In this document: positions 22,246 to 60,101 of the stretch, in pieces | Layout of the letters: each line of letters starts with the position of its first letter | Numbering within the stretch: position 1 is the stretch's first letter | From: a phage | Length of the DNA: 64,000 nucleotides | Sequence record: MZ956763.1 | Direction: 5' to 3' (one strand) | Made by a program: the position numbers and the translations under genes | Notes under the pieces: model-generated | Seen by the model: the letters and a program-made list of their open reading frames with translations, nothing else | What the model was told of the DNA's origin: nothing | Database searches by the model: none

Positions 22246-22731
22246 ATGAATTACATGGAGATTCGACCATTTGACACAGCTAATGGTGAAGGGGTTCGTG
22301 TGAGCCTCTTCGTAGCTGGCTGTAAACATCACTGTGAAGGCTGCTTTAACAGGGAGTCTTGGAAGTTTAATGCTGGTAAAGAGTTTACCTATGCAAACCT
22401 CTACGGCATCATTAAGCTAATGGATGATAATGCTATCAGTGGACTGTCAATACTTGGTGGGGAGCCTCTTGATGATAGAAACATTCAAGAGGTCACCAAC
22501 ATATGTAAACGTATTAAAACTGTTTACCCAGAAAAATCTATCTGGCTCTGGACAGGTTTTCAGTTACACGAAAAAATTCACCTAGATGTGATGAAATATG
22601 TTGACGTGGTGATTGATGGTAAGTATGATTCTTCTAAACCAACAGTTAAACCATATCGTGGTTCTGATAACCAAAACCTCTGGAGGAAAGAGTATGGGTG
22701 GCAAGGCGATTGTCAATGGCGAGCAGAATGA
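22246..22731 (+). CDS. nrdG: anaerobic RNR activating protein (radical SAM)
   Basis: 161 aa; CKHHCEGC (CxxxCxxC) near N-terminus. Confidence 0.8.
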   Translation: MNYMEIRPFDTANGEGVRVSLFVAGCKHHCEGCFNRESWKFNAGKEFTYANLYGIIKLMDDNAISGLSILGGEPLDDRNIQEVTNICKRIKTVYPEKSIWLWTGFQLHEKIHLDVMKYVDVVIDGKYDSSKPTVKPYRGSDNQNLWRKEYGWQGDCQWRAE

Positions 22732-22969
22732 TTATTCTGGTAAGTGGACTTACGACATCAACAAGTTAGATGCTTGGATGGTTTATACGAGAGAAAAATT
22801 TGGTTCACGTTCATTATGTGCTCTTGCAACGATTGTAAAGAATGTCACGTTTGTCATTCATGAATCAGATAAATTTGGAGACTTCTACAGGATTCAAAAC
22901 ATCAGAGAAGGTGTAACTCCAATTGGTATCACTGAAGAAGAACTTCATAAGTTCTGTATTAAACTTTAA
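22694..22969 (+). CDS. hypothetical protein
   Basis: internal ATG with GGAGGAAAG SD chosen; overlaps nrdG 3' end. Confidence 0.35.
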   Translation: MGGKAIVNGEQNDYSGKWTYDINKLDAWMVYTREKFGSRSLCALATIVKNVTFVIHESDKFGDFYRIQNIREGVTPIGITEEELHKFCIKL

Positions 22970-22984
22970 TGAGAGAGACTAAAA

Positions 22985-23251
22985 ATGGGAATTTTAGGTA
23001 ATATGAAGGCTGGCTTCTTGAAGGCACTAACAAAAGCAGCAGCAGTCATTTCTATGACTGGAAAGCAGGTTGGTGTAGATGCTTCAGCAGTTGCACAAGT
23101 TCTTGCAAGCCAAATTGAACAACAGCCTTACATCCACGTAGGACGTGGAAAAGGTGGTAAAAAACAAGCACATCGACCAACTGGTGCAGCAGCAATTAAA
23201 CGTGCAGCTAAGAAAGCTCGTAACCGTAAACGTAACAAGAAGGCTAAATAA
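22985..23251 (+). CDS. hypothetical highly basic protein
   Basis: 88 aa; C-terminal RAAKKARNRKRNKKAK. Confidence 0.45.
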   Translation: MGILGNMKAGFLKALTKAAAVISMTGKQVGVDASAVAQVLASQIEQQPYIHVGRGKGGKKQAHRPTGAAAIKRAAKKARNRKRNKKAK

Positions 23252-23253
23252 TC

Positions 23254-23574
23254 ATGAGCAAAGTTTATAACACTCGTAAATTACAGATTTTCGTACTGTG
23301 CCAATTTATGGCTAAAGAGTATAACTACTACTACTGCGGTACAGGGTTCATTAGCGATGATGACGGCTCATATCTACCATTCAAAGAGGCTGTAAAACTC
23401 TTCAATGAAGAGGAAAGCTCTAAGAAAGATATTGAAAAGGTCAAGCTAACCTACAGCAAGAAAGATAAGAAGATTATCTGCCTAGATAACTTTGTAAAAG
23501 TTACTGGAGAAGCAAAAGAGTTTATGGATGAGAGTGAAATCTCGTTCACAAGCATCTTGAAAGTAGCCCAGTAA
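23254..23574 (+). CDS. hypothetical protein
   Basis: 106 aa ORF followed by terminator. Confidence 0.45.
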   Translation: MSKVYNTRKLQIFVLCQFMAKEYNYYYCGTGFISDDDGSYLPFKEAVKLFNEEESSKKDIEKVKLTYSKKDKKIICLDNFVKVTGEAKEFMDESEISFTSILKVAQ

Positions 23575-23625
23575 ACAGATACTATAAGGGGACTGTAAAG
23601 GTTCCCTTTTTATTTTGGAGATAAT

Positions 23626-24141
23626 ATGTATCTGTCAAACCTGAAACGTTCGGCTGCAATGTCAGTTCTAAGACTAAGCTTTGAGGAACGTCAAGAGTTC
23701 ATTGACTCCCACCAATACGACCCTTCTAACTCAAATCACATGATTCTCTGGAATCGCGACAGTACTCGTGAAAGAGCACTATTCCGCTATTATCCACATT
23801 ACACCATAGATAACCTGTATGAATGTTTTGTTGTTAAGAACACCATTGCAGTGCTCAATAAGCTTTGTAGGTACACAGGTAACCAGTCCTTCACATTAGG
23901 TCACCACAAGCCTGTTACAAAAGGTGGCGAGCATCACTGTGCAAACTGGTTTATCCAAACTAAAGCCGATAACCAGAAGCAAGGAGATAGTCTTCTAAGC
24001 ATCCCTAAGATGACCTACGAAGAGCAAGAGAAATATATCAAAAATAATATGCCAGATGTGCTTGACAACAACTATACAGATTTGGCAATATCTCTCCTGT
24101 TGAAGTTTGAGACAGTTTATAGGGCAACTTACAATGGCTAA
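23626..24141 (+). CDS. putative HNH endonuclease
   Basis: GHHKPVTKGGEHHCANW...N pattern resembles HNH core. Confidence 0.45.
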   Translation: MYLSNLKRSAAMSVLRLSFEERQEFIDSHQYDPSNSNHMILWNRDSTRERALFRYYPHYTIDNLYECFVVKNTIAVLNKLCRYTGNQSFTLGHHKPVTKGGEHHCANWFIQTKADNQKQGDSLLSIPKMTYEEQEKYIKNNMPDVLDNNYTDLAISLLLKFETVYRATYNG

Positions 24142-24412
24142 AGAGAAGTGGGAGATTTTACCACTAGTCAGTGAGGGTGGCAATGGTTGTGAAATGTACA
24201 TGATACGAGGTCATGTTCCAGAACCAATTGCACTTGAGATGGTAAACAATTTTACAGATGGCTCTTACAAAGACTTAGGAGAACCAACTGTCAAGCAACA
24301 ATGGGTTAAACCTGTACCAGACAGCACAGGTAACTGTAGTGTACTTTATCACGTTGTAGACCCTGCAAAATGCAAATCTGCAATGGCAGTAACAAACGTA
24401 ACTTTTGATTGA
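24134..24412 (+). CDS. hypothetical protein
   Basis: ORF, start at internal ATG (MAKEKW). Confidence 0.4.
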   Translation: MAKEKWEILPLVSEGGNGCEMYMIRGHVPEPIALEMVNNFTDGSYKDLGEPTVKQQWVKPVPDSTGNCSVLYHVVDPAKCKSAMAVTNVTFD

Positions 24413-24421
24413 GAGAAAATT

Positions 24422-24877
24422 ATGATTTTTTGCAGCTTCCAAAAAAGAATTATTGAGATTCTATACAATAAGTTTGGGACAGATAACACATTTGACTCAA
24501 ATGAAGCTATCGAAGCCCTACAAGAAGGAAGTGATTACATCAAAAAACAGCCAATAGCCAACATCAGATACTACTTGACTCAGATGAGAAAGTGGGGTGT
24601 GCTCATCGTGGTAGGACAGATTAAGCAACAAGGGAGGATGCTCATCAACCAATTAAATAGAGGTTTTATTGAGAAGCACATTCAGCTAGACTATTTACTT
24701 AAAGAGCCACGAAATCAACGTGAAGAGCAGCAAAAAGACTTAAGTGATGGTGTAGGTGTGTCTCCAGACATAAAATTCTTTATTGGTGAGTTGATGTTTG
24801 ATACACTCCAAGATGCTGTTGAACACTGCAAAAAGTATATTATCAAAGTAAAACGTGCAAAAATTATTTGGGAGTAA
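24422..24877 (+). CDS. paralog family member A1 (unknown function)
   Basis: 151 aa; shares IEILY..FG.D.TF.S.EAI and C-terminal EHCKK.IIKVKRAKIIWE with three downstream genes. Confidence 0.6.
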   Translation: MIFCSFQKRIIEILYNKFGTDNTFDSNEAIEALQEGSDYIKKQPIANIRYYLTQMRKWGVLIVVGQIKQQGRMLINQLNRGFIEKHIQLDYLLKEPRNQREEQQKDLSDGVGVSPDIKFFIGELMFDTLQDAVEHCKKYIIKVKRAKIIWE

Positions 24878-24881
24878 TAAC

Positions 24882-25277
24882 ATGTTTGAGCTTCTGAAGG
24901 TTCTGTATATAAATTTTGGCTATGATAAAACATTTTCTGGCTCACAGCTAACTAAGGTTTTTAATAAATATCTACCACATGCTTCAATCAGGGATAAAGC
25001 TAATTGGTCTCACAGATTACGTAAAAGTGGGTATATTAGCGTTGTTGGAGCGACAGGCTTTAATAATGAGTATCTTATGAGAATCAATGAAAGCAAAGCT
25101 AAAAAGGTGCTTTTAAATTGTAATAACCATCAACAAAAGGATGAAGAGGTTAGTGTAGGTGAAGTAGGGTACTTCATAGGTGACATACACTTTACCAGTA
25201 TGGAGGCAGCAGTTGAGCATTGTAAGAGAACGGTTATCCAAACAAAAAGAAAGCGTATTGTTTGGGAAGAAGTTTAA
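24882..25277 (+). CDS. paralog family member B1 (unknown function)
   Basis: start at ATG after upstream stop; LLKVLY..FGYDKTF and C-terminal AVEHCKRTVIQTKRKRIVWE. Confidence 0.55.
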   Translation: MFELLKVLYINFGYDKTFSGSQLTKVFNKYLPHASIRDKANWSHRLRKSGYISVVGATGFNNEYLMRINESKAKKVLLNCNNHQQKDEEVSVGEVGYFIGDIHFTSMEAAVEHCKRTVIQTKRKRIVWEEV

Positions 25278-25298
25278 ACATTTGATTAGGAATACACT

Positions 25299-25763
25299 AT
25301 GATTTTTTGCAATTTACAGAAGCACGTAATAGAGATTTTATACAAAACCTTCGGGACAGAAAACACTTTTGACTCTAATGAAGCAATTGACGCATTAAGA
25401 GAGAATAGCCTCTTTATACGAGGCCAGTCAATCAGTAATACCCGTGGGTATCTAACAATGTTAAGACAGTCTGGTGTACTACTGACTGTAGGGCAGGTAA
25501 AAAGCAAAGGTAGACTAAGTATTAATCAATTAAATCGAGCCTTTATGGAGAAGCATATACAACTGTCAAGGATGCTAGATAATACGCGTGAAGAGTTGGG
25601 GAGTTCACAAAAAGCAAGTTCATCTGATGTTAAAGATGTGGATGTACAACCTGATGTAAGATACTTTATTGCTGATGTTATGTTTAAAACACTCGATGAA
25701 GCTATTGAGCACTGCAAAAAGCACCTTATTAAAGTTAAACATGCAAAAGTTATTTGGGAGTGA
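25299..25763 (+). CDS. paralog family member A2 (unknown function)
   Basis: 154 aa; roughly half of positions identical to 24422..24877 by eye. Confidence 0.6.
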   Translation: MIFCNLQKHVIEILYKTFGTENTFDSNEAIDALRENSLFIRGQSISNTRGYLTMLRQSGVLLTVGQVKSKGRLSINQLNRAFMEKHIQLSRMLDNTREELGSSQKASSSDVKDVDVQPDVRYFIADVMFKTLDEAIEHCKKHLIKVKHAKVIWE

Positions 25764-25767
25764 TGCT

Positions 25768-26148
25768 ATGATTGAACTGTTAAAAGTCCTATATAATGAG
25801 TTTGGTTATGATAAAACTTTTACTTGTTCACAGATACGTAGTATCCATGATAAGGAATTTCCAAATGTATCCAAGACAAACAAGTCAACTCGGTTCAATC
25901 GTCTTCGCCAGAGAGGTTACATTAAAATAGTTGGATACAAGAATAACTCTTTCGAGTATGTAATGCAGATTAACAGAGAAGTTTCAAGTAAAATACTTGA
26001 AGAGCCAACAGCCGAAGAACAAAAGATACAAGATGGTGAAGTTCGCTTCTTTGTGGAGAAGGAAAGTTTTGGGTCAATAGATGAAGCTATCGAATATTGT
26101 AAAAAGAACATTATCCAGATAAAGCGTAGAAAGGTTATTTGGGAATAA
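25768..26148 (+). CDS. paralog family member B2 (unknown function)
   Basis: start at ATG after upstream stop; MIELLKVLYNEFGYDKTF and C-terminal AIEYCKKNIIQIKRRKVIWE. Confidence 0.55.
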   Translation: MIELLKVLYNEFGYDKTFTCSQIRSIHDKEFPNVSKTNKSTRFNRLRQRGYIKIVGYKNNSFEYVMQINREVSSKILEEPTAEEQKIQDGEVRFFVEKESFGSIDEAIEYCKKNIIQIKRRKVIWE

Positions 26149-26165: not shown

Positions 26166-27047
26166 ATGAAAACATCTATCCGTGTTACAGTTCATTCACC
26201 GACTAAAGGGACTCACGAAGAAGAGTTTAACATTATCCAATTCCCTTCTGGTGAGATTGGTGGACACTTTTCACAAGAGCTTGTTGATTTCACTGCTTAT
26301 GCAGCATCATCTATCAACAATGTAATCATGATTGTGAAAGGTTATGATAAGGACACATTGTTTGCTGTGGCACTCGCTAAAGAAGCAATTGATGATTTAA
26401 TTCCTCATGATTATGCCTTAAAGACTGTCATCTTTTACTACTTACCAAATGCACGATATGACCGTCACATGTTTAAAGGTGATGCAGCAGCTTTGAAGGT
26501 TTTTGCTAAACAGGTTAATGCAATGGGGTTTGGTGCAGTCTGTGCAGTTGACCCTCACAGCTATGTACCAGATAACCTGTTTAACTGCTTCCAAAGTATT
26601 CCTCAAAATGAAATTGCAGTCCACTATGCAAATGACCCACTGGTTGATTACTTAGTAGCCCCAGATGCAGGTGCTGCTAAGAAGATTGCAGAGACTGCTA
26701 AAGAGGTGGATAAACCATATATCACAATGTCTAAGGTGCGCAACCTTAAGACTGGCGAAATTACTGGTATGCGAATCCTTGATGATGTTGATTTGACAGA
26801 TAAAACCGTCATGATTCTGGACGATATCTGTGATGGCGGTCGAACATTCATAGAAGCAGCTAAACATCTTCGTGAAGCAGGTGCAAAACGTGTGGAACTC
26901 TATGTAACACATGGTATCTTTTCTAAAGGTGTTGAAAACCTTCTTGACAATGGTATTGACCACATCTACACTACAAACTCTTTAGGGGAAGCTAAAGACC
27001 GTGGTTTAACACATTATGGTCAAGTTACTGTAGCAAACCTTGATTAA
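26166..27047 (+). CDS. ribose-phosphate pyrophosphokinase-like protein (PRPP synthetase family; candidate Adps of NARP1)
   Basis: PRTase-type motif VMILDDICDGGRTF; about 295 aa. Confidence 0.7.
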   Translation: MKTSIRVTVHSPTKGTHEEEFNIIQFPSGEIGGHFSQELVDFTAYAASSINNVIMIVKGYDKDTLFAVALAKEAIDDLIPHDYALKTVIFYYLPNARYDRHMFKGDAAALKVFAKQVNAMGFGAVCAVDPHSYVPDNLFNCFQSIPQNEIAVHYANDPLVDYLVAPDAGAAKKIAETAKEVDKPYITMSKVRNLKTGEITGMRILDDVDLTDKTVMILDDICDGGRTFIEAAKHLREAGAKRVELYVTHGIFSKGVENLLDNGIDHIYTTNSLGEAKDRGLTHYGQVTVANLD

Positions 27048-27093: not shown

Positions 27094-28875
27094 ATGACTA
27101 AATCACTTTATGCAGTACCAGCAGGTTTAAACGCAGATGCTTACAAATCTGGTCATGTTTACCAGTACCCTAGTGCAACAGATTACTTGATGTTTAACCT
27201 GACACCACGTAGTGATAAATGGTTTAACAGCCCTTTAGCAATTGATGGTGTAGTAGCTTTTGGTATTCAACGTTTTGTTAAAGATTACTTGATAGACCAC
27301 TGGAACGCCACCTTCTTTGAACGTGACAAAAAAGAAGCAATTGACGAAATCTTAGAAGTCATGAACGGTGTTCTGGGTAAAGATGCTATTGGTCGAGAAC
27401 ATTGGGAAGCACTTCACGACTTAGGTTATCTACCAGTTGAGGTATACGCTGTAGAAGAAGGTACAGTTGTCCCTATGCGTGTTCCAATGATTGTATTCCA
27501 GAACACTGTTTCAGGTTTCCATTGGGTAGCGGGATATCTGGAAGATGCTTTCTCTGCTGAGATTTGGAAGGCTTGTACCATTGCAACTATTGCATTGCAC
27601 TACAAACGTATCTGTAAGAAGTGGTCTGACCTTACTTGTGACAATGACTTGCATTTACCTTATCAGTGCCATGACTTCGCTATGCGTGGTATGTCCGGCT
27701 TTACCGATGACGCATTTAACGCTGTAGGTCACTTAACCAGCTTTAAAGGGACTGATAGCTTCCCTGCTGTGTATACAGCTAAACGCATCTATGGGCAGTC
27801 CTATCCAATTTCAGATATTGGTGGCTCTGTACCAGCCACTGAACACTCTGTCATGTGTGCAAACATTGCTTGGGAAGGTGGGGATGAGTTGATTGAAGAA
27901 GAAAGACGCTTTAAAGGTGAGTTACAAACCTTCCGTCGTTTCTTAACAGAAACTTACCCAACTGGTATTGTAAGTATTGTTTCAGATACTTATAATTTCT
28001 GGAGAACTGTATCAGTGATACTACCAGAACTCCGTAAAGAGATTATGGAACGTGATGGCAAACTGGTAATTCGTCCTGACTCTGGAGACCCTGTACATAT
28101 TGTCACAGGTTATAAAGCAATACATTTAGAGTGTGCTAAAAAGGCTTATTACGAACACCTAAGCAAGCTGGAAGCCAGCGACACAATGTTGAATGCTGTT
28201 CTGAACATGAAGCTTGAAAACATTAGCTATGGTATTGCTGGGTGGCTACTGTCAGAAGGCTACGAAATGGTTGTTGACAGAGAAGACTTTGAAGTTGCTG
28301 ATACAGTGATGTTGAAAAACGCTTATATGGTTGGTTCTGCAAACGTTGTAACACGTCCTGTAGCAGAGATTGATGGAGCTATCAAGACACTGTATCACAT
28401 CTTTGGAGGAACTATCAACTCTAAAGGTTTTAAAGTACTGGATGAGCACATTGGCCTTATTTATGGTGACTCTATCACGTTGGAACGTGCAAACGAAATC
28501 CTGAAGCGTTTGTATGAAATGGGTTTTGCAAGCTCTAACGTAGTGTTTGGTGTAGGTTCTTACACTTACCAGTACATGACTCGTGACACCTTTGCATTTG
28601 CTGTCAAAGCAACTCTTGCAAGCATTGGTGGTAAAGAGATTATGCTTGCAAAAGACCCTAAAACAGATAGTGGTGTTAAGAAATCTGCCTTTGGTGGTGT
28701 AGCACCTATGTGGGATGGTGATAAGCTGAAAGCTGTAGATGGCTATGGATTCCAGAGTTTTGCAGATGTACTTGACCACCCAGCTTGTGCCTTACGTTTA
28801 GTCTTTAGTGACTCTGAGCAGTTCGGTTACACGACTCTTGGTGATATTCGAAATAATATTGACAAGCAGCTTTAA
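27094..28875 (+). CDS. nicotinamide phosphoribosyltransferase-like protein (NAMPT family; candidate Namat of NARP1)
   Basis: 593 aa; N-terminal LYAVPAGLNADAYKSGHVYQYP typical of NAMPT/NadV family. Confidence 0.75.
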   Translation: MTKSLYAVPAGLNADAYKSGHVYQYPSATDYLMFNLTPRSDKWFNSPLAIDGVVAFGIQRFVKDYLIDHWNATFFERDKKEAIDEILEVMNGVLGKDAIGREHWEALHDLGYLPVEVYAVEEGTVVPMRVPMIVFQNTVSGFHWVAGYLEDAFSAEIWKACTIATIALHYKRICKKWSDLTCDNDLHLPYQCHDFAMRGMSGFTDDAFNAVGHLTSFKGTDSFPAVYTAKRIYGQSYPISDIGGSVPATEHSVMCANIAWEGGDELIEEERRFKGELQTFRRFLTETYPTGIVSIVSDTYNFWRTVSVILPELRKEIMERDGKLVIRPDSGDPVHIVTGYKAIHLECAKKAYYEHLSKLEASDTMLNAVLNMKLENISYGIAGWLLSEGYEMVVDREDFEVADTVMLKNAYMVGSANVVTRPVAEIDGAIKTLYHIFGGTINSKGFKVLDEHIGLIYGDSITLERANEILKRLYEMGFASSNVVFGVGSYTYQYMTRDTFAFAVKATLASIGGKEIMLAKDPKTDSGVKKSAFGGVAPMWDGDKLKAVDGYGFQSFADVLDHPACALRLVFSDSEQFGYTTLGDIRNNIDKQL

Positions 28876-28888
28876 AAGTATATGATAA

Positions 28889-28912
28889 GAGGCTCCTACG
28901 GGAGCCTTTTTT
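28889..28912 (+). terminator. intrinsic terminator after NAMPT-like gene
   Basis: GAGGCTCCTACGGGAGCCTTTTTT. Confidence 0.6.
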
Positions 28913-28929: not shown

Positions 28930-29274
28930 ATGGACAACCTTTCCATATGGTTTAACAAGAAACCTGTGCAACCGAAATACTTACAAGTTGCCTATACAGA
29001 CATCCTTGAAGTTCTCGGTAAAGAAAAGTTTGAAAAGTTTTGTGAAGGTATCTACAATCACCACTGCCAATTTGCTACAAAAGAGGGTATGTTTGTCATA
29101 GAACAGTTCTTTGGCAGAGACCAAGATGACTATGAAGAGATTAGCTTTGTAATGAAATACATGATAGAGTATATTGAAAATCGTGGATTCGAAGTTAATC
29201 CTGAATTTTATGAACATGAGGGTGTACCTTTAGCAAAAGGTTTCGATGGCATACTCGTTAACTGGACTTGGTGA
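28930..29274 (+). CDS. hypothetical protein
   Basis: 114 aa ORF after terminator. Confidence 0.45.
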   Translation: MDNLSIWFNKKPVQPKYLQVAYTDILEVLGKEKFEKFCEGIYNHHCQFATKEGMFVIEQFFGRDQDDYEEISFVMKYMIEYIENRGFEVNPEFYEHEGVPLAKGFDGILVNWTW

Positions 29275-35985: not shown

Positions 35986-36312
35986 ATGCAGATTAATGGA
36001 AGAGACTTTGTAGCCGTTTACTACGAGAAAGATAAAGAAGTTGGCGTAGCACAAGTATCTTATGGCAATGGTAAGTGGCTATATGGAACAATTGCAGTAG
36101 TCGGAACAAGGAGCGATACAAAAACTTTCAAAGATTGTGTTGACCTTCTTGAAGAATCCATACAGAATCATTGGTGTCTGATATGGATGACTGATAACGA
36201 AGTGATGGAGCGTTTCAAAAAGATTGATATCAACATTGACAGTATTGAGCATGTTGATTTATATGAGCTAACTGAGAAGGTAAACTATGAAAGTAATACT
36301 AGCCAGAGATAA
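35986..36312 (+). CDS. hypothetical protein
   Basis: 108 aa ORF. Confidence 0.4.
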   Translation: MQINGRDFVAVYYEKDKEVGVAQVSYGNGKWLYGTIAVVGTRSDTKTFKDCVDLLEESIQNHWCLIWMTDNEVMERFKKIDINIDSIEHVDLYELTEKVNYESNTSQR

Positions 36313-36514
36313 AAAGACACGAAAGCTTATCAGGTCAGCAGTGTTCATTGGACGAAACGAGGTCATCCCATTTACAGCAAATGATGTGATAGCTTACAGG
36401 GAGAACTTAGTATTCACTGACTGCTTACGTGGCTTCATCTCTGAACCATTGGAAGATTTTAAAAGTCGTTGTGGTAAAGGTATCATCATTCAAGAGGCAA
36501 TTATTCATGGCTGA
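36287..36514 (+). CDS. hypothetical protein
   Basis: 75 aa ORF. Confidence 0.35.
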   Translation: MKVILARDKKTRKLIRSAVFIGRNEVIPFTANDVIAYRENLVFTDCLRGFISEPLEDFKSRCGKGIIIQEAIIHG

Positions 36515-37750: not shown

Positions 37751-38003
37751 GGTGTAGGTGGGGATGTCGCCATTTCTCACAAGGCTACCACATCCGAAAA
37801 GAAAAGTCAACAGAAAAATTTGTAGCGGATTGAAAAATAATTCTTGATTTGTGTTCTGTTTTGTGGTATTCGCGCGCACCCGTTTCATTACATTTTTGCC
37901 AAAAATATTTTTAAAATTTTTCTTGACTATTCGAACGGGGTTATCTAGTATTTGCATCAACGGGGCGACAAGCCCGATAGCCTTAAACTAGGAGAATCTA
38001 AAA

Positions 38004-38210
38004 ATGCTATACGGTCGTGAATTGATGGTTACAACTAACGTTAACACAAATGTAAAACGTTTTTACATGCAAATTTGTGGCGTATGGTCTAGAATATCAG
38101 AGGCTGACTATTGCAACTATGTAGAAACGGCAATCAACTCTGATTGCTACCTTACAAGGAATACAAGAAAGCACATAAGACAGACAGCAGTTTACTACTA
38201 CGATATCTAA
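38004..38210 (+). CDS. small hypothetical protein (array gene 1)
   Basis: ORF preceded by conserved leader CCTTAAACTAGGAGAATCTAAAAATG. Confidence 0.5.
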   Translation: MLYGRELMVTTNVNTNVKRFYMQICGVWSRISEADYCNYVETAINSDCYLTRNTRKHIRQTAVYYYDI

Positions 38211-55087: not shown

Positions 55088-55164
55088 CTCTGTTTAGCTC
55101 AGCTTGGTAGAGCGTTCCGTTTGGGGCGGTAAGGCCGGAGGTTCAAGTCCTCCAACAGAGACCA
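55088..55164 (+). tRNA. tRNA-Pro(TGG)
   Basis: manual fold: 7-bp acceptor, D-arm TAGCTCAGCTTGGTAGAGC, anticodon loop TTTGGGG, T-loop TTCAAGT, CCA encoded. Confidence 0.65.
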
Positions 55165-55171
55165 AATTAAT

Positions 55172-55249
55172 GTTCCAGTAGACAAAATGGTAAAGTCACC
55201 ACTCTTTCAAAGTGGATATCTGAGGGTTCAAATCCCTTCTGGAACGCCA
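55172..55249 (+). tRNA. tRNA-Glu(TTC)
   Basis: manual fold: acceptor GTTCCAG/CTGGAAC, anticodon stem CCACT/AGTGG, loop CTTTCAA. Confidence 0.6.
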
Positions 55250-55254
55250 GTTTT

Positions 55255-55330
55255 GACAGAAGACCAATTACAGCAAACTTAATCTTATTCATCTGAAGGT
55301 AAATCGGACAAAGAAGAGATTTGGTCTGGT
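55255..55330 (+). ncRNA. stem-loop element A of a 5-member family
   Basis: 5' CAGAAGACCAATTACAGCAA pairs with 3' TTGGTCTGG; between tRNA-Glu and tRNA-Met. Confidence 0.4.
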
Positions 55331-55340
55331 CATTAAGAAT

Positions 55341-55417
55341 TGCGGGTATAGAGAAAGGGCGTCTCACATGTCTCATTAGCATGGTATCGGCAGGTTCGAC
55401 TCCTGCACCCGCCTCCA
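55341..55417 (+). tRNA. tRNA-Met(CAT), possibly initiator (1-72 mismatch)
   Basis: anticodon stem CATGT/GCATG, loop CTCATTA; T-arm GCAGG-TTCGACT-CCTGC; position 1 unpaired. Confidence 0.5.
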
Positions 55418-55420
55418 AAT

Positions 55421-55488
55421 TTACAGAAGACCGTTTACAGCAATATTTATTAAATTTTTAGCGGAAAAATTGAAAGATACGGTCTGGT
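55421..55488 (+). ncRNA. stem-loop element B
   Basis: 5' CAGAAGACCGTTTACAGCAA, 3' ACGGTCTGG; internal hairpin AATTTTTAGCGGAAAAATT. Confidence 0.4.
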
Positions 55489-55500
55489 AATACTAAACAT

Positions 55501-55577
55501 GGTTAGGAAGCACATAAGGTATGTGCGGTCGCCTGTTAAGCGAATGGCACAGGGTTCGAATCCCTGACTAACCGCCA
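55501..55577 (+). tRNA. tRNA-Asn(GTT)
   Basis: D-stem GCAC/GTGC, anticodon loop CTGTTAA, T-loop TTCGAAT. Confidence 0.65.
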
Positions 55578-55646
55578 AATTTAGGAGAGAAGCGATTGCT
55601 CACCGATTTGTAAGGTGCAAGTCCTTAGCCTGAATAGAAATTAAAT

Positions 55647-55734
55647 GTGTCGTTATCCCGTAGATGGTAGCGGTGGGGACTGTAAATCCCTTGTCATTGA
55701 GACTCGGTAGGTTCGACTCCTACACGGCACACCA
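55647..55734 (+). tRNA. tRNA-Tyr(GTA), long variable arm
   Basis: 88 nt; anticodon stem GGGGA/TCCCT, loop CTGTAAA; acceptor GTGTCGT/ACGGCAC. Confidence 0.55.
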
Positions 55735-55739
55735 ATAAA

Positions 55740-55817
55740 GGCTATGTAGTTTAATAGGGTTAAAATACTCCCCTGTCACGGGAGATGATGTGAGTTCAAG
55801 TCTCATCGTAGCCGCCA
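55740..55817 (+). tRNA. tRNA-Asp(GTC)
   Basis: acceptor GGCTATG/CGTAGCC, anticodon stem CTCCC/GGGAG, loop CTGTCAC. Confidence 0.65.
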
Positions 55818-55902
55818 AATTATAATAAGTATTTCAAAATGATGTTTTGAGAGGGCTATTTAGCCCCTCCCTTAAAGAGTTCTTACGAGTATTCTTTAAA
55901 GG

Positions 55903-55979
55903 AGCAGAAGACCAAATACAGCAAGTTACTTAAAATTTCAAGCCAATTTAATTTTGAAAAATTTAAAACTTGGTCTGGC
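55903..55979 (+). ncRNA. stem-loop element C
   Basis: 5' CAGAAGACCAAATACAGCAA, 3' TTGGTCTGG. Confidence 0.4.
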
Positions 55980-55988
55980 TCAACAAAT

Positions 55989-56123
55989 TTACAGAAGACC
56001 GTTTACAGCAAAACTTAAACAATCTATTTCTCGGTAAAGAAAAGGAGAAGGTTCGATTCCTTCACTCGGCAGATGTCGAGTTGGTGTAATGGTAGCACTT
56101 AAGATGGTAAACAACGGTCTGGT
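55989..56123 (+). ncRNA. Y-RNA-like (YrlA-type) tRNA-mimic element D
   Basis: terminal stem AGACCGTT/AACGGTCT encloses T-arm-like GAAGG-TTCGATT-CCTTC, acceptor-like hairpin ACTCGGC-AGAT-GTCGAGT and D-arm-like GTG-TAATGGTAG-CAC, i.e. tRNA modules in permuted order with no anticodon arm. Confidence 0.45.
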
Positions 56124-56271
56124 AATTATCTTTGTAGATAAGTTATTAAGCTTACCTGTGAGTATGCGACCACAAAGGGTGAAAGGGTAAATTCTAGATT
56201 TAAACCCAAAAAGGCACATCGCTACAGACCTTAAGCAAGTCTGGGTAGCTTATCTACAAAGATAATTTAAT

Positions 56272-56347
56272 GGAAGTGTAGCAGAATGGTGATGCGGCAG
56301 ACTTTTAATCTGACAGGCGATGGGTTCGAATCCCTCCACTTCTACCA
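56272..56347 (+). tRNA. tRNA-Lys(TTT)
   Basis: anticodon loop CTTTTAA; acceptor GGAAGTG/CACTTCT; weak T-stem. Confidence 0.55.
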
Positions 56348-56351
56348 AAAT

Positions 56352-56428
56352 GGTTCAGTCGCAGATAAGGTAATGCAAGGGTTTCATAAGCCCTATGAAT
56401 GTGGGTTCGATTCCCATCTGAACCTCCA
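56352..56428 (+). tRNA. tRNA-Met or Ile2 (CAT)
   Basis: acceptor GGTTCAG/CTGAACC; anticodon stem AGGGT/GCCCT, loop TTCATAA. Confidence 0.55.
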
Positions 56429-56430
56429 AT

Positions 56431-56505
56431 TGTGGGTTAGCATAAATGGTAATGCAAACGGCTGATAACCGTTAGAAGAGGGTTCGATACCCTCACCTAC
56501 AACCA
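56431..56505 (+). tRNA. tRNA-Ile(GAT)
   Basis: anticodon stem AACGG/CCGTT, loop CTGATAA; T-arm GAGGG-TTCGATA-CCCTC. Confidence 0.6.
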
Positions 56506-56520
56506 ATTTCAATAGAGTTG

Positions 56521-56549
56521 TTGACATTGAGATGTGACTACTTTATAGT
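56521..56549 (+). promoter_or_regulatory. sigma70-like promoter inside tRNA cluster
   Basis: TTGACA, 17 bp, TATAGT. Confidence 0.55.
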
Positions 56550-56842
56550 AACTAAAATACTTCACAATATGTATAATTCAAACACCAATACATGAGCGTT
56601 AGACGTAACACAATGTGGGGAAATTTGTTGTACATATTCTGAATAGTTTTCGTTGCGTAGCGTCTATTTTGCAAATTTAAAATAAATGCAAACGACAATG
56701 TTTTTCTGGCAGTAGCTTGATAGGCTAAACACCAGTGAGGTCTTCCAATCCCTCATCAAAGAATTTGGCGTACTCGCCCACGGTATGATTAATAAGGTGG
56801 GCATCTTTAAGGGCTTTCTAAGAGAGTCTTTAAAGATAATTA

Positions 56843-56924
56843 CGGGGCGTATCTCAGCGGTCTTCTAAACCGCCGTTAACCGAGTAAGTGGAGTATGCGG
56901 GTTCGAGTCCTGCCGCCTCGACCA
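56843..56924 (+). tRNA. atypical tRNA-like gene, possibly tRNA-Arg(TCT)
   Basis: good acceptor (CGGGGCG/CGCCTCG), T-arm and a perfect hairpin GCGGT-CTTCTAA-ACCGC, but no canonical D-arm and a 23-nt region before the T-arm. Confidence 0.3.
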
Positions 56925-57067
56925 ATTTAGTTAGCAGATTACTTAGACGACCTAAGCGGGTCTTCCTGTAGGGAGGTGGTCTGTATCTCATGTTTTCCAG
57001 AACATGTAAATAATCTGAGAAGGGGCTTTACAGTGTTGAGATAATACGGTAAGCTTCGAATTATAGT

Positions 57068-57150
57068 GTGGGACGATGTTAAGACTCTAAGGCATGAGCA
57101 ACGGCCTCCAAAACCGTTTCAAAGGGGTTCAACTCCTCCGTCCCATGCCA
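57068..57150 (+). tRNA. atypical tRNA-like gene, possibly tRNA-Trp(CCA)
   Basis: acceptor GTGGGAC/GTCCCAT, T-loop TTCAACT, anticodon-like loop CTCCAAA on stem ACGG/CCGT; D region about 7-8 nt too long. Confidence 0.3.
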
Positions 57151-57163
57151 AAGTCTTATTAGG

Positions 57164-57251
57164 GGTAGGTAGCGGCTAATGGCAGCCAAACAGTCTTGAA
57201 AACTGTTGCCACTGTAGAGATACGGTGAGGGTTCGACTCCTTTACTTACCG
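57164..57251 (+). tRNA. tRNA-Ser(TGA), long variable arm
   Basis: anticodon stem ACAGT/ACTGT, loop CTTGAAA; D-loop TAATGGCA; CCA not encoded. Confidence 0.55.
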
Positions 57252-57407
57252 CCTAATAAGATTTAAAGCCAAGCTTCATTCGGATGTCGCTTTGGTATCC
57301 CGCGTGTATTGTCGTACACACTGATAAAACACCTAGTAGGTGTCACGGAGAAGAGATAATATCAAGCTCTCCAAAGGTTCTAGTCACCGGATTAAACAAG
57401 ACTATGC

Positions 57408-57429
57408 AAAGACCTTTTTAGGTCTTTTT
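57408..57429 (+). terminator. intrinsic terminator inside tRNA cluster
   Basis: AAGACCTTTTTAGGTCTTTTT. Confidence 0.5.
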
Positions 57430-57508
57430 AGAGGGCTTCTAAGGTTATTACAGCTTGTTGTGGAACCTTGTTGCTTAGGTTCTTAGAAGTTCTCTAAAAA
57501 GATTTAAT

Positions 57509-57586
57509 GGGAGATTGACGGTAATTGGTAAACCTACCATCCTTAGAAGTTGGTGTTTGAGGGTTCGAATCCCTTGTCTCCTACCA
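57509..57586 (+). tRNA. tRNA-Leu(TAG), short variable loop
   Basis: anticodon loop CTTAGAA; A73 discriminator; T-arm GAGGG-TTCGAAT-CCCTT. Confidence 0.5.
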
Positions 57587-57593
57587 AATTAAT

Positions 57594-57669
57594 GCAGGTG
57601 TAGCAAAATGGTTATGCGGCTGACTCTTAATCAGTAAGACGATGGGTTCAATTCCCTCCACCTGTACCA
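57594..57669 (+). tRNA. tRNA-Lys(CTT)
   Basis: same scaffold as tRNA-Lys(TTT); anticodon loop CTCTTAA. Confidence 0.55.
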
Positions 57670-57675
57670 GACATT

Positions 57676-57751
57676 GGGGTCATAGTTTATATGGTTAAAA
57701 TTCGAGTTTTGCAAACTTGGGAACTGAGTTCAATTCTCAGTGACTCCACCA
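57676..57751 (+). tRNA. tRNA-Ala(TGC)
   Basis: anticodon loop TTTGCAA; T-arm CTGAG-TTCAATT-CTCAG. Confidence 0.6.
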
Positions 57752-57757
57752 ATTAGT

Positions 57758-57832
57758 GCATCCATAGTTTAAACGGGAAAATTACAGTCTTCCAAACTGA
57801 GGTTGAGGGTTCGATTCCCTCTGGATGCTCCA
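57758..57832 (+). tRNA. tRNA-Gly(TCC)
   Basis: perfect acceptor GCATCCA/TGGATGC; anticodon loop CTTCCAA. Confidence 0.6.
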
Positions 57833-57839
57833 AATTAAT

Positions 57840-57915
57840 GCTCCTATCGTATAATAGGCTATTACGGTTGCCTTGTAAGCAACTTATCAGGGTTCGAATC
57901 CTTGTGGGAGCACCA
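57840..57915 (+). tRNA. tRNA-Thr(TGT)
   Basis: anticodon stem GTTGC/GCAAC, loop CTTGTAA. Confidence 0.65.
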
Positions 57916-57916
57916 A

Positions 57917-58006
57917 TTCAGAGGTCAAGTGAAAGACCGCTGGTGTCAACTGAAGACCGTAACAAATTCCACGGAGTTGAGTTAGCGGCACAACTTCAGA
58001 CCTCTT
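57917..58006 (+). ncRNA. stem-loop element E (related to A-D)
   Basis: outer stem AGAGGTC/GACCTCT; contains GAAGACCGTAACAAA resembling the family 5' motif. Confidence 0.3.
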
Positions 58007-58010
58007 TCAC

Positions 58011-58085
58011 ACTCGCTTAGTTTATATGGTAAAACACCACCCTTACAAGATGAAGAAAAAGGTTCAAGTCCTTTAGTGAGTACCA
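58011..58085 (+). tRNA. tRNA-Val(TAC)
   Basis: acceptor ACTCGCT/AGTGAGT, D-stem GTTT/AAAC, T-arm AAAGG-TTCAAGT-CCTTT, anticodon loop CTTACAA on a weak stem. Confidence 0.45.
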
Positions 58086-58086
58086 T

Positions 58087-58164
58087 GTTCCAGTATCCCA
58101 ATTGGCAGAGGATGCAAGCTCAAACCTTGTATTAGTGACGGTTCGAATCCGTCTTGGAACACCA
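58087..58164 (+). tRNA. tRNA-Leu(CAA), short variable loop
   Basis: Leu-like D-loop CAATTGGCAGA; anticodon loop CTCAAAC; A73. Confidence 0.5.
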
Positions 58165-58183
58165 ATTTTAAGAGGCTATTTAG

Positions 58184-58741
58184 ATGAGATATTTGAAGTA
58201 TGCTTCATGGATTTTCCTAGCTTTACTAGAGCCATTTGCAGCAACCCTATCAGTCATCTTAGCACCTTTCGTAGTTCCATTCTACAGTGAGAAGAAAGGA
58301 CACCTACCTTTTGGATTCAGATGGATGGAGACCTATGACAACCCAATTGATGGTGATGAAGGTCACGTTAAAAGATGGGCTAAGATTAGAAAGATTGGTA
58401 AGCTGGGTGTCTACATGCAGAGAGTTGGATGGCTCTGGAGAAACAAAGCTTATAACTTCTCTTACCATGTATTAGGAAGAGATGTAAAAGATGTTACTAA
58501 GTGGAAAGGTAATATCAACGTAAGTTCTGACCCTGAAGATAATCAGACAGGTTATCTCCTAATGTGGAACAACAATGCTTGGGGATTATTCGCTTTTATT
58601 CCGTCAATTAAAATCTTTGGTAAACAGTTTTACTGGAGAATTTATGTTGGATGGAAACTAAAAAGTGTTGTCCCAGAAGAAAGAGCATTCTCAAGGGAAA
58701 GAGTTATGTTGGCATTCTTTATTCATCCACTGAGAAAGTAA
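58184..58741 (+). CDS. hypothetical membrane protein embedded in tRNA cluster
   Basis: 185 aa ORF starting just after a tRNA; N-terminal hydrophobic segment. Confidence 0.5.
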   Translation: MRYLKYASWIFLALLEPFAATLSVILAPFVVPFYSEKKGHLPFGFRWMETYDNPIDGDEGHVKRWAKIRKIGKLGVYMQRVGWLWRNKAYNFSYHVLGRDVKDVTKWKGNINVSSDPEDNQTGYLLMWNNNAWGLFAFIPSIKIFGKQFYWRIYVGWKLKSVVPEERAFSRERVMLAFFIHPLRK

Positions 58742-58749
58742 AGATTTAA

Positions 58750-58825
58750 AGGGGATTAGTTTACAAGGTTAAAACCTCGGTCTTTGAAATCGAAGAAGTT
58801 GGTTCAATTCCAACATCCCCAGCCA
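58750..58825 (+). tRNA. tRNA-Gln(TTG)
   Basis: D-stem GTTT/AAAC; anticodon loop CTTTGAA; T-arm GTTGG-TTCAATT-CCAAC. Confidence 0.55.
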
Positions 58826-58827
58826 AT

Positions 58828-58906
58828 GCTCCATTACTCCAATTGGCAGAGAGGCCAGACTTAAAATCTGTGTTATGTATCGGTTCGAATCCGATATGGA
58901 GTACCA
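58828..58906 (+). tRNA. tRNA-Leu(TAA), short variable loop
   Basis: D-arm CTC-CAATTGGCAGA-GAG; anticodon loop CTTAAAA; A73. Confidence 0.5.
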
Positions 58907-58911
58907 ATTTT

Positions 58912-58987
58912 AGCGGTATAGCATAATTGGCAATGCAACAGTCTCTGAAGCTGTCCTATTAAGGTTCAAATCCTTATACCGCTGCCA
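58912..58987 (+). tRNA. tRNA-Gln(CTG)
   Basis: perfect acceptor AGCGGTA/TACCGCT; anticodon loop CTCTGAA. Confidence 0.6.
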
Positions 58988-59018
58988 CTTCTAAGGGTTC
59001 TTACGAGAGTCCTTAAAT

Positions 59019-59094
59019 GTGGCCTTATCATAAATGGTAATGACCCATGCTGTGAACATGGTCTATACGGGTTCAAATCCCGTAGGTCACCCCA
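59019..59094 (+). tRNA. tRNA-His(GTG)
   Basis: anticodon stem CCATG/CATGG, loop CTGTGAA; C73 discriminator. Confidence 0.65.
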
Positions 59095-59099
59095 ATTTA

Positions 59100-59177
59100 T
59101 AGTCCAAGTAGCTTATATGGTTAAAGCGCGTGTCTGAAAAACATGAGAAGAGGGTTCAAATCCCACTGGACTACCAA
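59100..59177 (+). tRNA. tRNA-Phe(GAA)
   Basis: perfect acceptor TAGTCCA/TGGACTA; anticodon stem CGTGT/ACATG, loop CTGAAAA; 3' end reads CAA. Confidence 0.5.
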
Positions 59178-59192
59178 TTTCAAAGGTGCTTA

Positions 59193-59927
59193 ATGAAAGA
59201 GATGACAGAACAAGGTAAGGAGATTTTTAATCTCTTAAAAACCGGTAAAGGGTTTTCTAACCCACTTATTACTGGTGCAGCAGTTCTCGGTGGAACCGTA
59301 GCTGCCTCTACATCACTTGTAAGCTCTATTAGCTCTGTAACAGACCCTACAATGAATGAGAAACTTGTTGCTGCTGGACTTACAACAGTCCTTCTAAACA
59401 GCTTTACAACAAGCCTGACAAGCACTACAGCAACTACTAAGACCCTAACAGACTATGGTCAAAAGTCTATTGATGAGTTTTCATCACGTATGCAGGTAGC
59501 AAAGGGATACTCCAATGTTATGGGTGCAGCAGGAGAACAAGTTGGTTGTACACCGTTCAGTGGTATTATGGGTGTTGCTACAGAATATGGTCAAAAAGCT
59601 ATTGATACGATTAACAGTACACTAGAGAGTGTTAACGATGTATTAAGTGACTTACAAGACGCTATTGACAAGGGTCTTGATACTGTTTCTGATTTAGCTA
59701 ACCAAGCTGTCAGTAAGATTAATGAAGGTATCTCAAAGATTACAGCTTATGCAGATGAAGTTGTGCAGATGATTGAAGAAGAAGCTGCCCTTATTGCAGA
59801 GTACCTTAAAACGAATATCAATGGGTTCTTAGCAGGTATCTTACCAGACTGGTTTGATGATGCTTGTAAAACTGGTGTGATTGACACTATTGCAACACCA
59901 GAAATGAAGAACGCATTACAGAAATAA
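59193..59927 (+). CDS. hypothetical Ser/Thr-rich protein
   Basis: start set at ATG after tRNA-Phe (MKEMTEQ); track ORF start 59130 would overlap the tRNA. Confidence 0.5.
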   Translation: MKEMTEQGKEIFNLLKTGKGFSNPLITGAAVLGGTVAASTSLVSSISSVTDPTMNEKLVAAGLTTVLLNSFTTSLTSTTATTKTLTDYGQKSIDEFSSRMQVAKGYSNVMGAAGEQVGCTPFSGIMGVATEYGQKAIDTINSTLESVNDVLSDLQDAIDKGLDTVSDLANQAVSKINEGISKITAYADEVVQMIEEEAALIAEYLKTNINGFLAGILPDWFDDACKTGVIDTIATPEMKNALQK

Positions 59928-59928
59928 T

Positions 59929-60021
59929 GGAAGATTAACCCTAAAAGGTAAGGGAGCAGTTTGCTAAACTGCCAGTAGCTGAGAAATCGGTGTACCAGTT
60001 CAAGTCTGGTATCTTCCTCCA
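59929..60021 (+). tRNA. tRNA-Ser(GCT), long variable arm
   Basis: 93 nt; anticodon stem GCAGT/ACTGC, loop TTGCTAA; T-arm ACCAG-TTCAAGT-CTGGT. Confidence 0.6.
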
Positions 60022-60025
60022 ATTT

Positions 60026-60101
60026 GAATCCGTGACAGAAATGGCTATGTGCCTGTCTGCAAAACAGGTTTATAAGGGTTCGAGTCCCTTCGGATTCTCC
60101 A
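60026..60101 (+). tRNA. tRNA-Cys(GCA)
   Basis: anticodon stem CCTGT/ACAGG, loop CTGCAAA; U73 discriminator. Confidence 0.65.

Follow-up and report, generated by a model that had tools for sequence, protein, structure and literature searches.

A horizontally exchanged cassette of coupled, diverged paralogs with a predicted winged-helix fold, directly upstream of a NARP1-type operon in a Felix O1-like phage

In the hyperplastic regions of T4-like and other large virulent phages, cassettes of small genes with unknown functions and individual ribosome-binding sites (RBSs) are precisely inserted or deleted between conserved genes, exchanged horizontally and flanked by short direct repeats. Here we describe a comparable cassette in a 64,000-nucleotide stretch of phage DNA (sequence record MZ956763.1; the whole stretch is hereafter called the window), which comes from a Felix O1-like myovirus (genus Felixounavirus). 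The cassette consists of four consecutive genes, A, B, A' and B', and shares all of these properties with the hyperplastic-region cassettes, differing from them in that every inserted gene is a paralog of one orphan family and that the genes are arranged in coupled pairs, each of a long (A, A') and a short (B, B') protein. Our preferred reading, held with moderate confidence, is that the cassette is a self-contained, horizontally exchanged accessory module encoding coupled pairs of basic winged-helix, nucleic-acid-binding proteins, which act as heteromers in an optional role directed at the host or at competitors.

The family is already catalogued as PHROG 29478, an entry without assigned function that all four proteins match. 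The entry models the long class (A, E 2e-63; A', E 9e-68; both over positions 1-150), whereas the short class scores much lower (B, E 2e-14; B', E 4e-15; positions 9-150), and P0015, a distant 125-amino-acid (aa) member of the family, matches its C-terminal 40 positions. With respect to fold, the closest described proteins are the PadR-like (PadR-s2 type), MarR and SarA/SarX/Rot regulators and F93 of the archaeal virus STIV, which have the same layout of a winged helix and a following helix. No sequence relationship to them is detectable by Pfam or PDB sequence searches; moreover, the cassette proteins add a disordered linker, a unique beta-beta-alpha module and a basic tail, and the cassette is built of coupled pairs of diverged paralogs, whereas each of the known regulators is the product of one homodimer-forming gene. 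The genomic arrangement resembles that of Aca-type regulators and of other DNA-binding genes found within phage counter-defence operons, as predicted DNA-binding proteins here probably share one transcription unit with the counter-defence system NARP1. However, a winged helix is predicted here instead of a simple helix-turn-helix, four copies are present, no operator was identified and most phages with the same NARP1 operon lack the cassette. The fold is ordinary, and so is the general category of small winged-helix accessory protein in a variable early or middle region of a virulent phage. The distinctive features are the C-terminal module, the arrangement of diverged paralogs in coupled pairs, the use of one fixed site and the location immediately 5' of a counter-defence operon.

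Pairwise BLASTP comparisons revealed significant similarity among all four proteins, far beyond chance, which establishes them as paralogs: A and A' share 57% identity (E 2e-67), B and B' share 42% (E 3e-37), and comparisons between the A and B classes gave 24-30% (E 7e-14 to 6e-19). A first-pass annotation of the window had proposed four consecutive homologous genes of 151, 131, 154 and 126 aa that alternate between two subtypes. The coordinates, the + strand and the E values agree with this proposal, and both BLASTP and a neighbour-joining tree pair A with A' and B with B'. The same annotation had named two shared sequence blocks. The C-terminal block ending in WE is present in all four proteins and reads A[VI]E[HY]CK..[IV]I..K...[IV][IV]WE across the family; the N-terminal block is equally real ([IL][IL][EK][IV]LYxxFG[TY][DE][NK]TF in the family), but the wording originally given for it, I/LExLY, describes A and A', and the corresponding residues of B and B' are LKVLY. 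The columns that are invariant across the family are F, F, A, E, C, I, K, W and E. When a family hidden Markov model (HMM) was searched against the six-frame translation of the window, A, B, A' and B' were the only copies detected.

The AlphaFold2 models of A and B are mutually consistent and divide the proteins into four parts: an N-terminal winged helix with the order alpha1-beta1-alpha2-alpha3-beta2-beta3 followed by a helix (block-mean predicted local distance difference test (pLDDT) score of 82-94); an acidic or polar linker that is disordered; a beta-beta-alpha module peculiar to the family, formed by a C-terminal beta-hairpin and a long amphipathic helix (pLDDT 67-74); and a basic tail ending in IIWE (pLDDT 39-48). 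In the models a beta-hairpin wing follows the recognition helix, as in winged helix-turn-helix proteins, so that structure prediction bears out the N-terminal winged helix suggested earlier from the letters. All four proteins are basic (isoelectric point 8.8-9.4), with net charges of +4 to +8 for the winged-helix part and +2 to +5 for the last 15 residues. The C-terminal 33 residues are the best-conserved part of the family, with 42-55% identity between classes compared with 13-26% for the winged helix, and are the only part clearly common with P0015. In alignments, the recognition helices differ between subtypes and are kept within ortholog groups. The structural neighbours of the models include the winged-helix folds of kleisins (MukF, JetA) and NLRs, and a fold search of BFVD returned the family itself and generic winged-helix proteins, with nothing else.

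Sequence-based searches pointed to no described function. The MarR (PF01047/PF12802) and PadR (PF03551) models gave no match, with hmmscan returning unrelated sub-threshold matches only at E values of up to 1; a PDB sequence profile search found no regulator; and none of the four proteins matched PADLOC-DB at E values of up to 1. The family genes are annotated in GenBank as hypothetical proteins, and literature searches found neither a study of these genes nor a described anti-defence protein resembling the family. Two candidate identities of the C-terminal module were rejected. An HNH-type or beta-beta-alpha-Me nuclease is excluded because no His is invariant (B', Pr103Blw_00124 and Mordin_7 have Tyr in place of the sole His, H135 of A), and there was no HNH Pfam match; a non-significant similarity to the C-terminal half of the SH2 domains of NCK1 and NCK2 (E 0.07-0.11 over 30-35 residues) was attributed to chance or to convergence on a hairpin-helix. 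The idea of an RNA element was dropped, as Rfam had no match inside the cassette.

The arrangement of the genes indicates that A-B and A'-B' are tightly translationally coupled. All five A-to-B junctions (two in the window and one each in loci L007, L008 and L009) read TGGGAG-stop-4 nt-ATG, and the Trp-Glu codons that end the long gene thus supply the Shine-Dalgarno sequence of the short one. The five genes that precede a B type all use GAG for this final Glu, the ten other family members examined use GAA, and the remaining junctions have 17-33 nt spacers and their own RBSs. Such tight coupling would lead to equimolar synthesis of the long and the short protein. A programmed +1 frameshift joining A to B was also considered and rejected: the B frame is open upstream for just 10-36 codons and there is no conserved slippery site, so termination-reinitiation coupling is the simpler account of the junction geometry.

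The distribution of the family is patchy. Approximately 247 phage records match the flanks of the locus, and tblastn located the family in 16 of these, of which 11 have four copies and five have two; Felix O1 and wV8 have none. The two-copy phages are the Citrobacter phages Mordin (counted twice, as GenBank and RefSeq records) and KMM2, Shigella phage Henu11 and Escherichia phage Pr103Blw. At the gp134/prs site, Mordin and Pr103Blw carry an ortholog of A' (Mordin_8, 73% identity; Pr103Blw_00123, 81%) followed by a third long subtype, and more distant Ounavirinae-like assembled or metagenomic contigs carry A-B alone; among the phages examined, B' was found only in those with four copies. Public annotations of these genes are not uniform. 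In Salmonella phage vB_SAg-RPN213 the A' ortholog is intact (locus L015, 1396-1860) and is annotated from an internal start as 101 aa, and a number of other records start B' at an upstream ATG, so that it overlaps A' and reaches 135 aa; both are annotation inconsistencies and not biology.

As judged by sequence searches, the family is tiny and restricted to Ounavirinae. It amounts to 14 clusters among 5.8 billion proteins, and an HMM search of 1.84 billion representative proteins recovered three family representatives and two other proteins, P0015 and a 1424-aa protein. The latter consists of repeated winged-helix units and is an unrelated repeat protein, uninformative on function; a search seeded with P0015 found no protein beyond P0015 itself. 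Scans of IMG/VR and of GTDB (185,579 species-representative genomes) turned up no relatives, and JGI metagenomes yielded two loci with the family. P0015 (locus L006, 8001-8378; Logan contig SRR31815898_117897) is the sole distant member and is encoded by a single-copy gene of a more divergent phage, where it sits after rIIB, SLT and PNKP-like genes and not beside the NAPRTase gene, which is about 5.8 kb away. A Macro-domain gene lies about 2 kb further downstream of P0015.

A neighbour-joining tree rooted on P0015 (bootstrap 95-100 for classes and 67-100 for subtype groups) divides the long class into A1 (A of the window and of L007-L009), A2 (A', Pr103Blw_00123 and Mordin_8) and A3 (Pr103Blw_00124 and Mordin_7), and the short class into B1 (B of the window and of L007-L009) and B2 (B'). 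This topology fits an old duplication of an A-B unit, and synonymous sites between paralogs are saturated (proportion of synonymous differences (pS) 0.76-0.84). Since A1-B1 occurs alone and A2-A3 pairs exist, the units have been reshuffled, and because of this reshuffling the four-gene array may stem from recombination between phages and not from recent duplication in place. The first-pass idea of a duplicated two-gene unit is thus upheld with respect to the unit, which occurs alone elsewhere and has a uniform junction geometry, but the duplication appears to be ancient and is possibly not the event that produced the array. Over the last 33 codons of A and A' (24779-24877 versus 25665-25763), pS falls to 0.25 versus 0.8-0.9 elsewhere, while non-synonymous differences are not reduced; identical codons make up 16 of 19 in this part versus 27 of 67 elsewhere (Fisher P=0.0013). 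This low-pS end may be either a short gene-conversion tract or the result of a shared nucleotide-level constraint tied to the downstream B gene.

The family orthologs are under purifying selection, with no gene-wide arms-race signal. Their ratios of non-synonymous to synonymous substitution rates (dN/dS) are 0.05-0.14 for the A type and 0.14-0.22 for the B type, indistinguishable from those of flanking genes in the same genome pairs (gp133, gp134, prs and nrdG; 0.06-0.19). Each of the eight further four-copy phages examined keeps all four genes intact, and across these nine carriers (the window included) synonymous changes far exceed non-synonymous ones in A, A' and B'. For B, comparison among very close relatives gave 4-5 non-synonymous versus 0-1 synonymous changes in the helix and linker region, counts that are too small to interpret.

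Synonymous divergence further shows that the cassette is horizontally exchanged and younger than its flanks, since its dS is below that of the flanking genes in both comparisons made: between the window and contig L009, dS was 0.34-0.38 for A and B versus 0.9-1.1 for the flanking genes, and among four-copy phages it was 0-0.14 for the cassette versus 0.20-0.37 for gp134 and prs (with the near-identical Seyj1-1 left out). In Mordin, a perfect 37-nt direct repeat, made up of the gp134 homolog's end together with the RBS and ATG, brackets the two-gene cassette (locus L005, 2968-3004 and 3933-3969), and in Pr103Blw a 14-nt repeat, AT[TC]GAGAGAGAGAA, lies at both cassette edges. The Mordin repeat looks like the footprint of insertion or deletion by short-homology recombination, and recombination between the flanking repeats would restore the empty site of most phages. 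To look for co-varying partners, approximately 50 kb of the window was compared with the carrier finno and with the whole genome of the non-carrier wV8. The cassette was the only sizeable segment common to the window and finno yet missing from wV8, and no other segment of at least 100 nt co-varied with it; two stretches of about 0.2 kb each that are shared with finno and absent from wV8 (36294-36506 and 37966-38203) were rejected as partners, being widespread in cassette-less phages. As nothing else sizeable co-varies with the cassette, the module appears to be self-contained.

Over this region, the window shares 98.9% identity with Salmonella phage vB Seyj1-1 and 95-96% with several phages of Escherichia and Salmonella. 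The cassette is placed exactly between the gp134 homolog and the prs-like gene (Table 1); in wV8, which has no cassette, the gp134 stop is separated from the prs start by 11 nt. Terminator-like hairpins bracket the run from gp133 to nadV, and between 23586 and 28887 the transcribed strand holds one further terminator-like site, a weak one inside B with three G-C pairs out of 12, so the four genes are probably co-transcribed with prs/nadV. The prs-like/nadV-like pair has the Pfam content and order of genes 79-80 of phage Bas63, a likeness drawn from these two properties and not from direct alignment. Those Bas63 genes were shown experimentally to constitute NARP1 (Adps and Namat), which remakes NAD+ from ADP-ribose and nicotinamide and thereby defeats SIR2-HerA and other NAD+-depleting defences (bioRxiv 10.1101/2024.02.11.579819); Bas63 is assigned to Felixounavirus (PMC12609058). 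Public annotations still call the prs-like and nadV-like genes ribose-phosphate pyrophosphokinase and nicotinamide phosphoribosyltransferase. Salmonella phage fBSPA4 (locus L004) has lost gp134 (247 nt are missing) and has kept the four-gene cassette, which is consequently independent of gp134; fKMPT1 is likely alike.

Table 1. Coordinates of the cassette genes, their coupled junctions and flanking features in the window
Feature	Position	Strand	Description
Terminator-like hairpin	23586..23608	+	Upstream limit of gp133-gp134-A-B-A'-B'-prs-nadV
gp134 homolog	24134..24412	+	92 aa; PHROG 4726, function unknown; left flank of insertion point
Gene A	24422..24877	+	151 aa; long class, subtype A1; predicted winged helix, linker, beta-beta-alpha module and basic IIWE tail
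A-to-B junction	24867..24884	+	TGGGAG-TAA-TAAC-ATG; Shine-Dalgarno GGGAG from the last Trp-Glu codons of A; 4-nt gap
Gene B	24882..25277	+	131 aa from ATG 24882; short class, subtype B1; putatively translationally coupled to A
Gene A'	25299..25763	+	154 aa; long class, subtype A2
A'-to-B' junction	25753..25770	+	TGGGAG-TGA-TGCT-ATG
Gene B'	25768..26148	+	126 aa from ATG 25768; short class, subtype B2; putatively translationally coupled to A'
prs-like gene (Adps of NARP1)	26166..27047	+	Pfam Pribosyltran, Pribosyl_synth; right flank
nadV-like gene (Namat of NARP1)	27094..28875	+	Pfam NAPRTase, NAMPT_N
Terminator-like hairpin	28887..28910	+	3' of nadV; end of unit

The reading as an accessory module of paired nucleic-acid-binding proteins is directly supported by the paralogy and the predicted fold, by the basic charge of the proteins and the geometry of their coupling, and by the distribution, purifying selection and horizontal exchange of the genes, together with the occurrence of the family as two or four copies at the gp134/prs locus; from these we infer DNA binding, heteromer formation and a biological target. 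Under this reading, the genes would be transcribed with the NARP1 operon in the nucleotide-metabolism region, at a time we assume to be early or middle. The winged helix would bind nucleic acid, with a specificity that differs between subtypes, and the common C-terminal module would mediate the pairing of paralogs, which would explain both its conservation across classes and the coupled pairwise gene order. The long and the short protein, made 1:1 by coupling, would then act as a heterodimer or higher oligomer, and the products would be optional DNA-binding factors directed at the host or at competitors, outside the core functions of the phage. Several observations weigh against it: the C-terminal module is modelled at just moderate confidence (pLDDT 67-74) and the tail at low confidence (39-48); no Pfam match below E 0.01 was obtained, and hence no DNA-binding family was matched at the sequence level; neither operator-like repeats nor candidate targets were identified; P0015, the distant member, occurs as a single copy; and the Mordin and Pr103Blw pairs are both long-class, with gaps of 29-33 nt, and are not tightly coupled.

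The cassette is probably co-transcribed with NARP1, is patchily distributed and has been exchanged horizontally, all of which makes a counter-defence or host-takeover role plausible, although there is no gene-level arms-race signature and no tie to any specific defence system. The first-pass annotation had regarded tandem amplification with divergence as a frequent mark of host-interaction pressure; the patchiness, the exchange and the placement beside NARP1 are compatible with an accessory role in host interaction, but no elevation of dN/dS accompanies them (0.05-0.22, as in the flanks). One form of this role would be carried out by protein-protein binding, with the winged helix and the C-terminal module inhibiting host immune proteins, the subtypes covering variants of these targets and the cassette forming an island with NARP1. 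The precise placement of the cassette at a variable spot, directly upstream of NARP1 and apparently in the same unit, the maintenance of several diverged subtypes side by side and the presence of kleisin (MukF, JetA) and NLR winged helices among the structural neighbours all speak for it. We nevertheless consider it unlikely: gene-wide diversifying selection is absent, dN/dS being that of housekeeping neighbours, basic proteins with a basic tail fit nucleic-acid binding better, no described anti-defence protein in the literature searched shows a resemblance, and adjacency is weak evidence where the early region is densely packed with small genes. Tentatively, and with a similarly low expectation of being correct, the pairs could represent a new class of heteromeric DNA- or protein-binding counter-defence or host-takeover factor that would disable a host immune system, each pair (A-B, A'-B' and A2-A3) tuned to a different target and travelling as a plug-in cassette into the NARP1 anti-defence locus.

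Regulator genes are common inside counter-defence operons, and the proteins might instead be transcriptional regulators dedicated to the operon that encodes them, NARP1 included, and keep the cost of prs/nadV expression low in an Aca-like manner. The predicted fold, which is that of DNA-binding regulators, and the probable co-transcription with NARP1 are in line with this idea. It is improbable all the same, because more than 90% of Felixounavirus records have prs/nadV without the cassette; in addition, the 16 carriers include no record under the name JohannRWettstein (Bas63), no sequence of at least 100 nt co-varies with the cassette to hold new operators, four regulators for one operon would be unparsimonious, and P0015 lies some 5.8 kb from the NAPRTase gene. 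We give a comparably small chance to inter-phage competition or superinfection exclusion, in which the products would bind DNA of co-infecting phages or mobile elements, recognising it and silencing or blocking it: basic accessory winged-helix proteins whose subtype-specific recognition helices are kept within ortholog groups, and which most members of the genus can dispense with, would suit this task, but neither a membrane nor a nuclease component is present, and this phage group has no known analogue. Finally, absence from most relatives without obvious consequence, and flanking short direct repeats that ease gain and loss, would be expected of selfish or decaying DNA, that is, of a tandem-duplication remnant hitch-hiking without function for the phage. 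Purifying selection (ortholog dN/dS 0.05-0.22 across deep divergence) and intact frames (all four in 9 of 9 carriers examined, with synonymous changes dominant in A, A' and B') largely refute this explanation and make it highly improbable, and the coupling signals are conserved and no endonuclease or transposase is encoded in the cassette.

The immediate significance of the cassette is moderate, as it encodes an uncharacterised orphan family with a common fold. If the pairs are counter-defence or host-takeover factors, the NARP1 locus of Felix O1-like phages, which are widely used in the typing and biocontrol of Salmonella and E. coli, would widen into a small anti-defence island, and the pairs would exemplify winged-helix effectors that are heteromeric and travel in plug-in cassettes. 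Whether or not a function is assigned, the locus documents the gain, loss and shuffling of small modules at a fixed site in virulent phages, including direct repeats at the level of the RBS, coupling built into the last codons of the upstream gene and a cassette that is younger than its flanks.

The surroundings of the cassette showed several further features. The gp133 homolog (23626-24141; 171 aa; PHROG 3500, function unknown) has a weak match to an HNH endonuclease PHROG (E 1.6e-4) and a HHKPVTKGGEHHCANW motif, and may be a degenerate or divergent HNH gene heading the operon. A promoter-like sequence, TTGAAA-17-TACTAT (23557-23608), abuts the terminator hairpin just 5' of gp133; transcription of the operon could either start at this site or arise by read-through from upstream. 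Two segments, 22728-23130 (covering the start of an 88-aa gene) and 28933-29268 (covering a 114-aa gene right after the nadV terminator), are missing at the DNA level from both wV8 and finno, and the NARP1 unit is therefore flanked by further variable accessory slots. Elsewhere in the window, 24 tRNA genes are clustered on the + strand at 55088-60101, as is typical of Felix O1-like phages.

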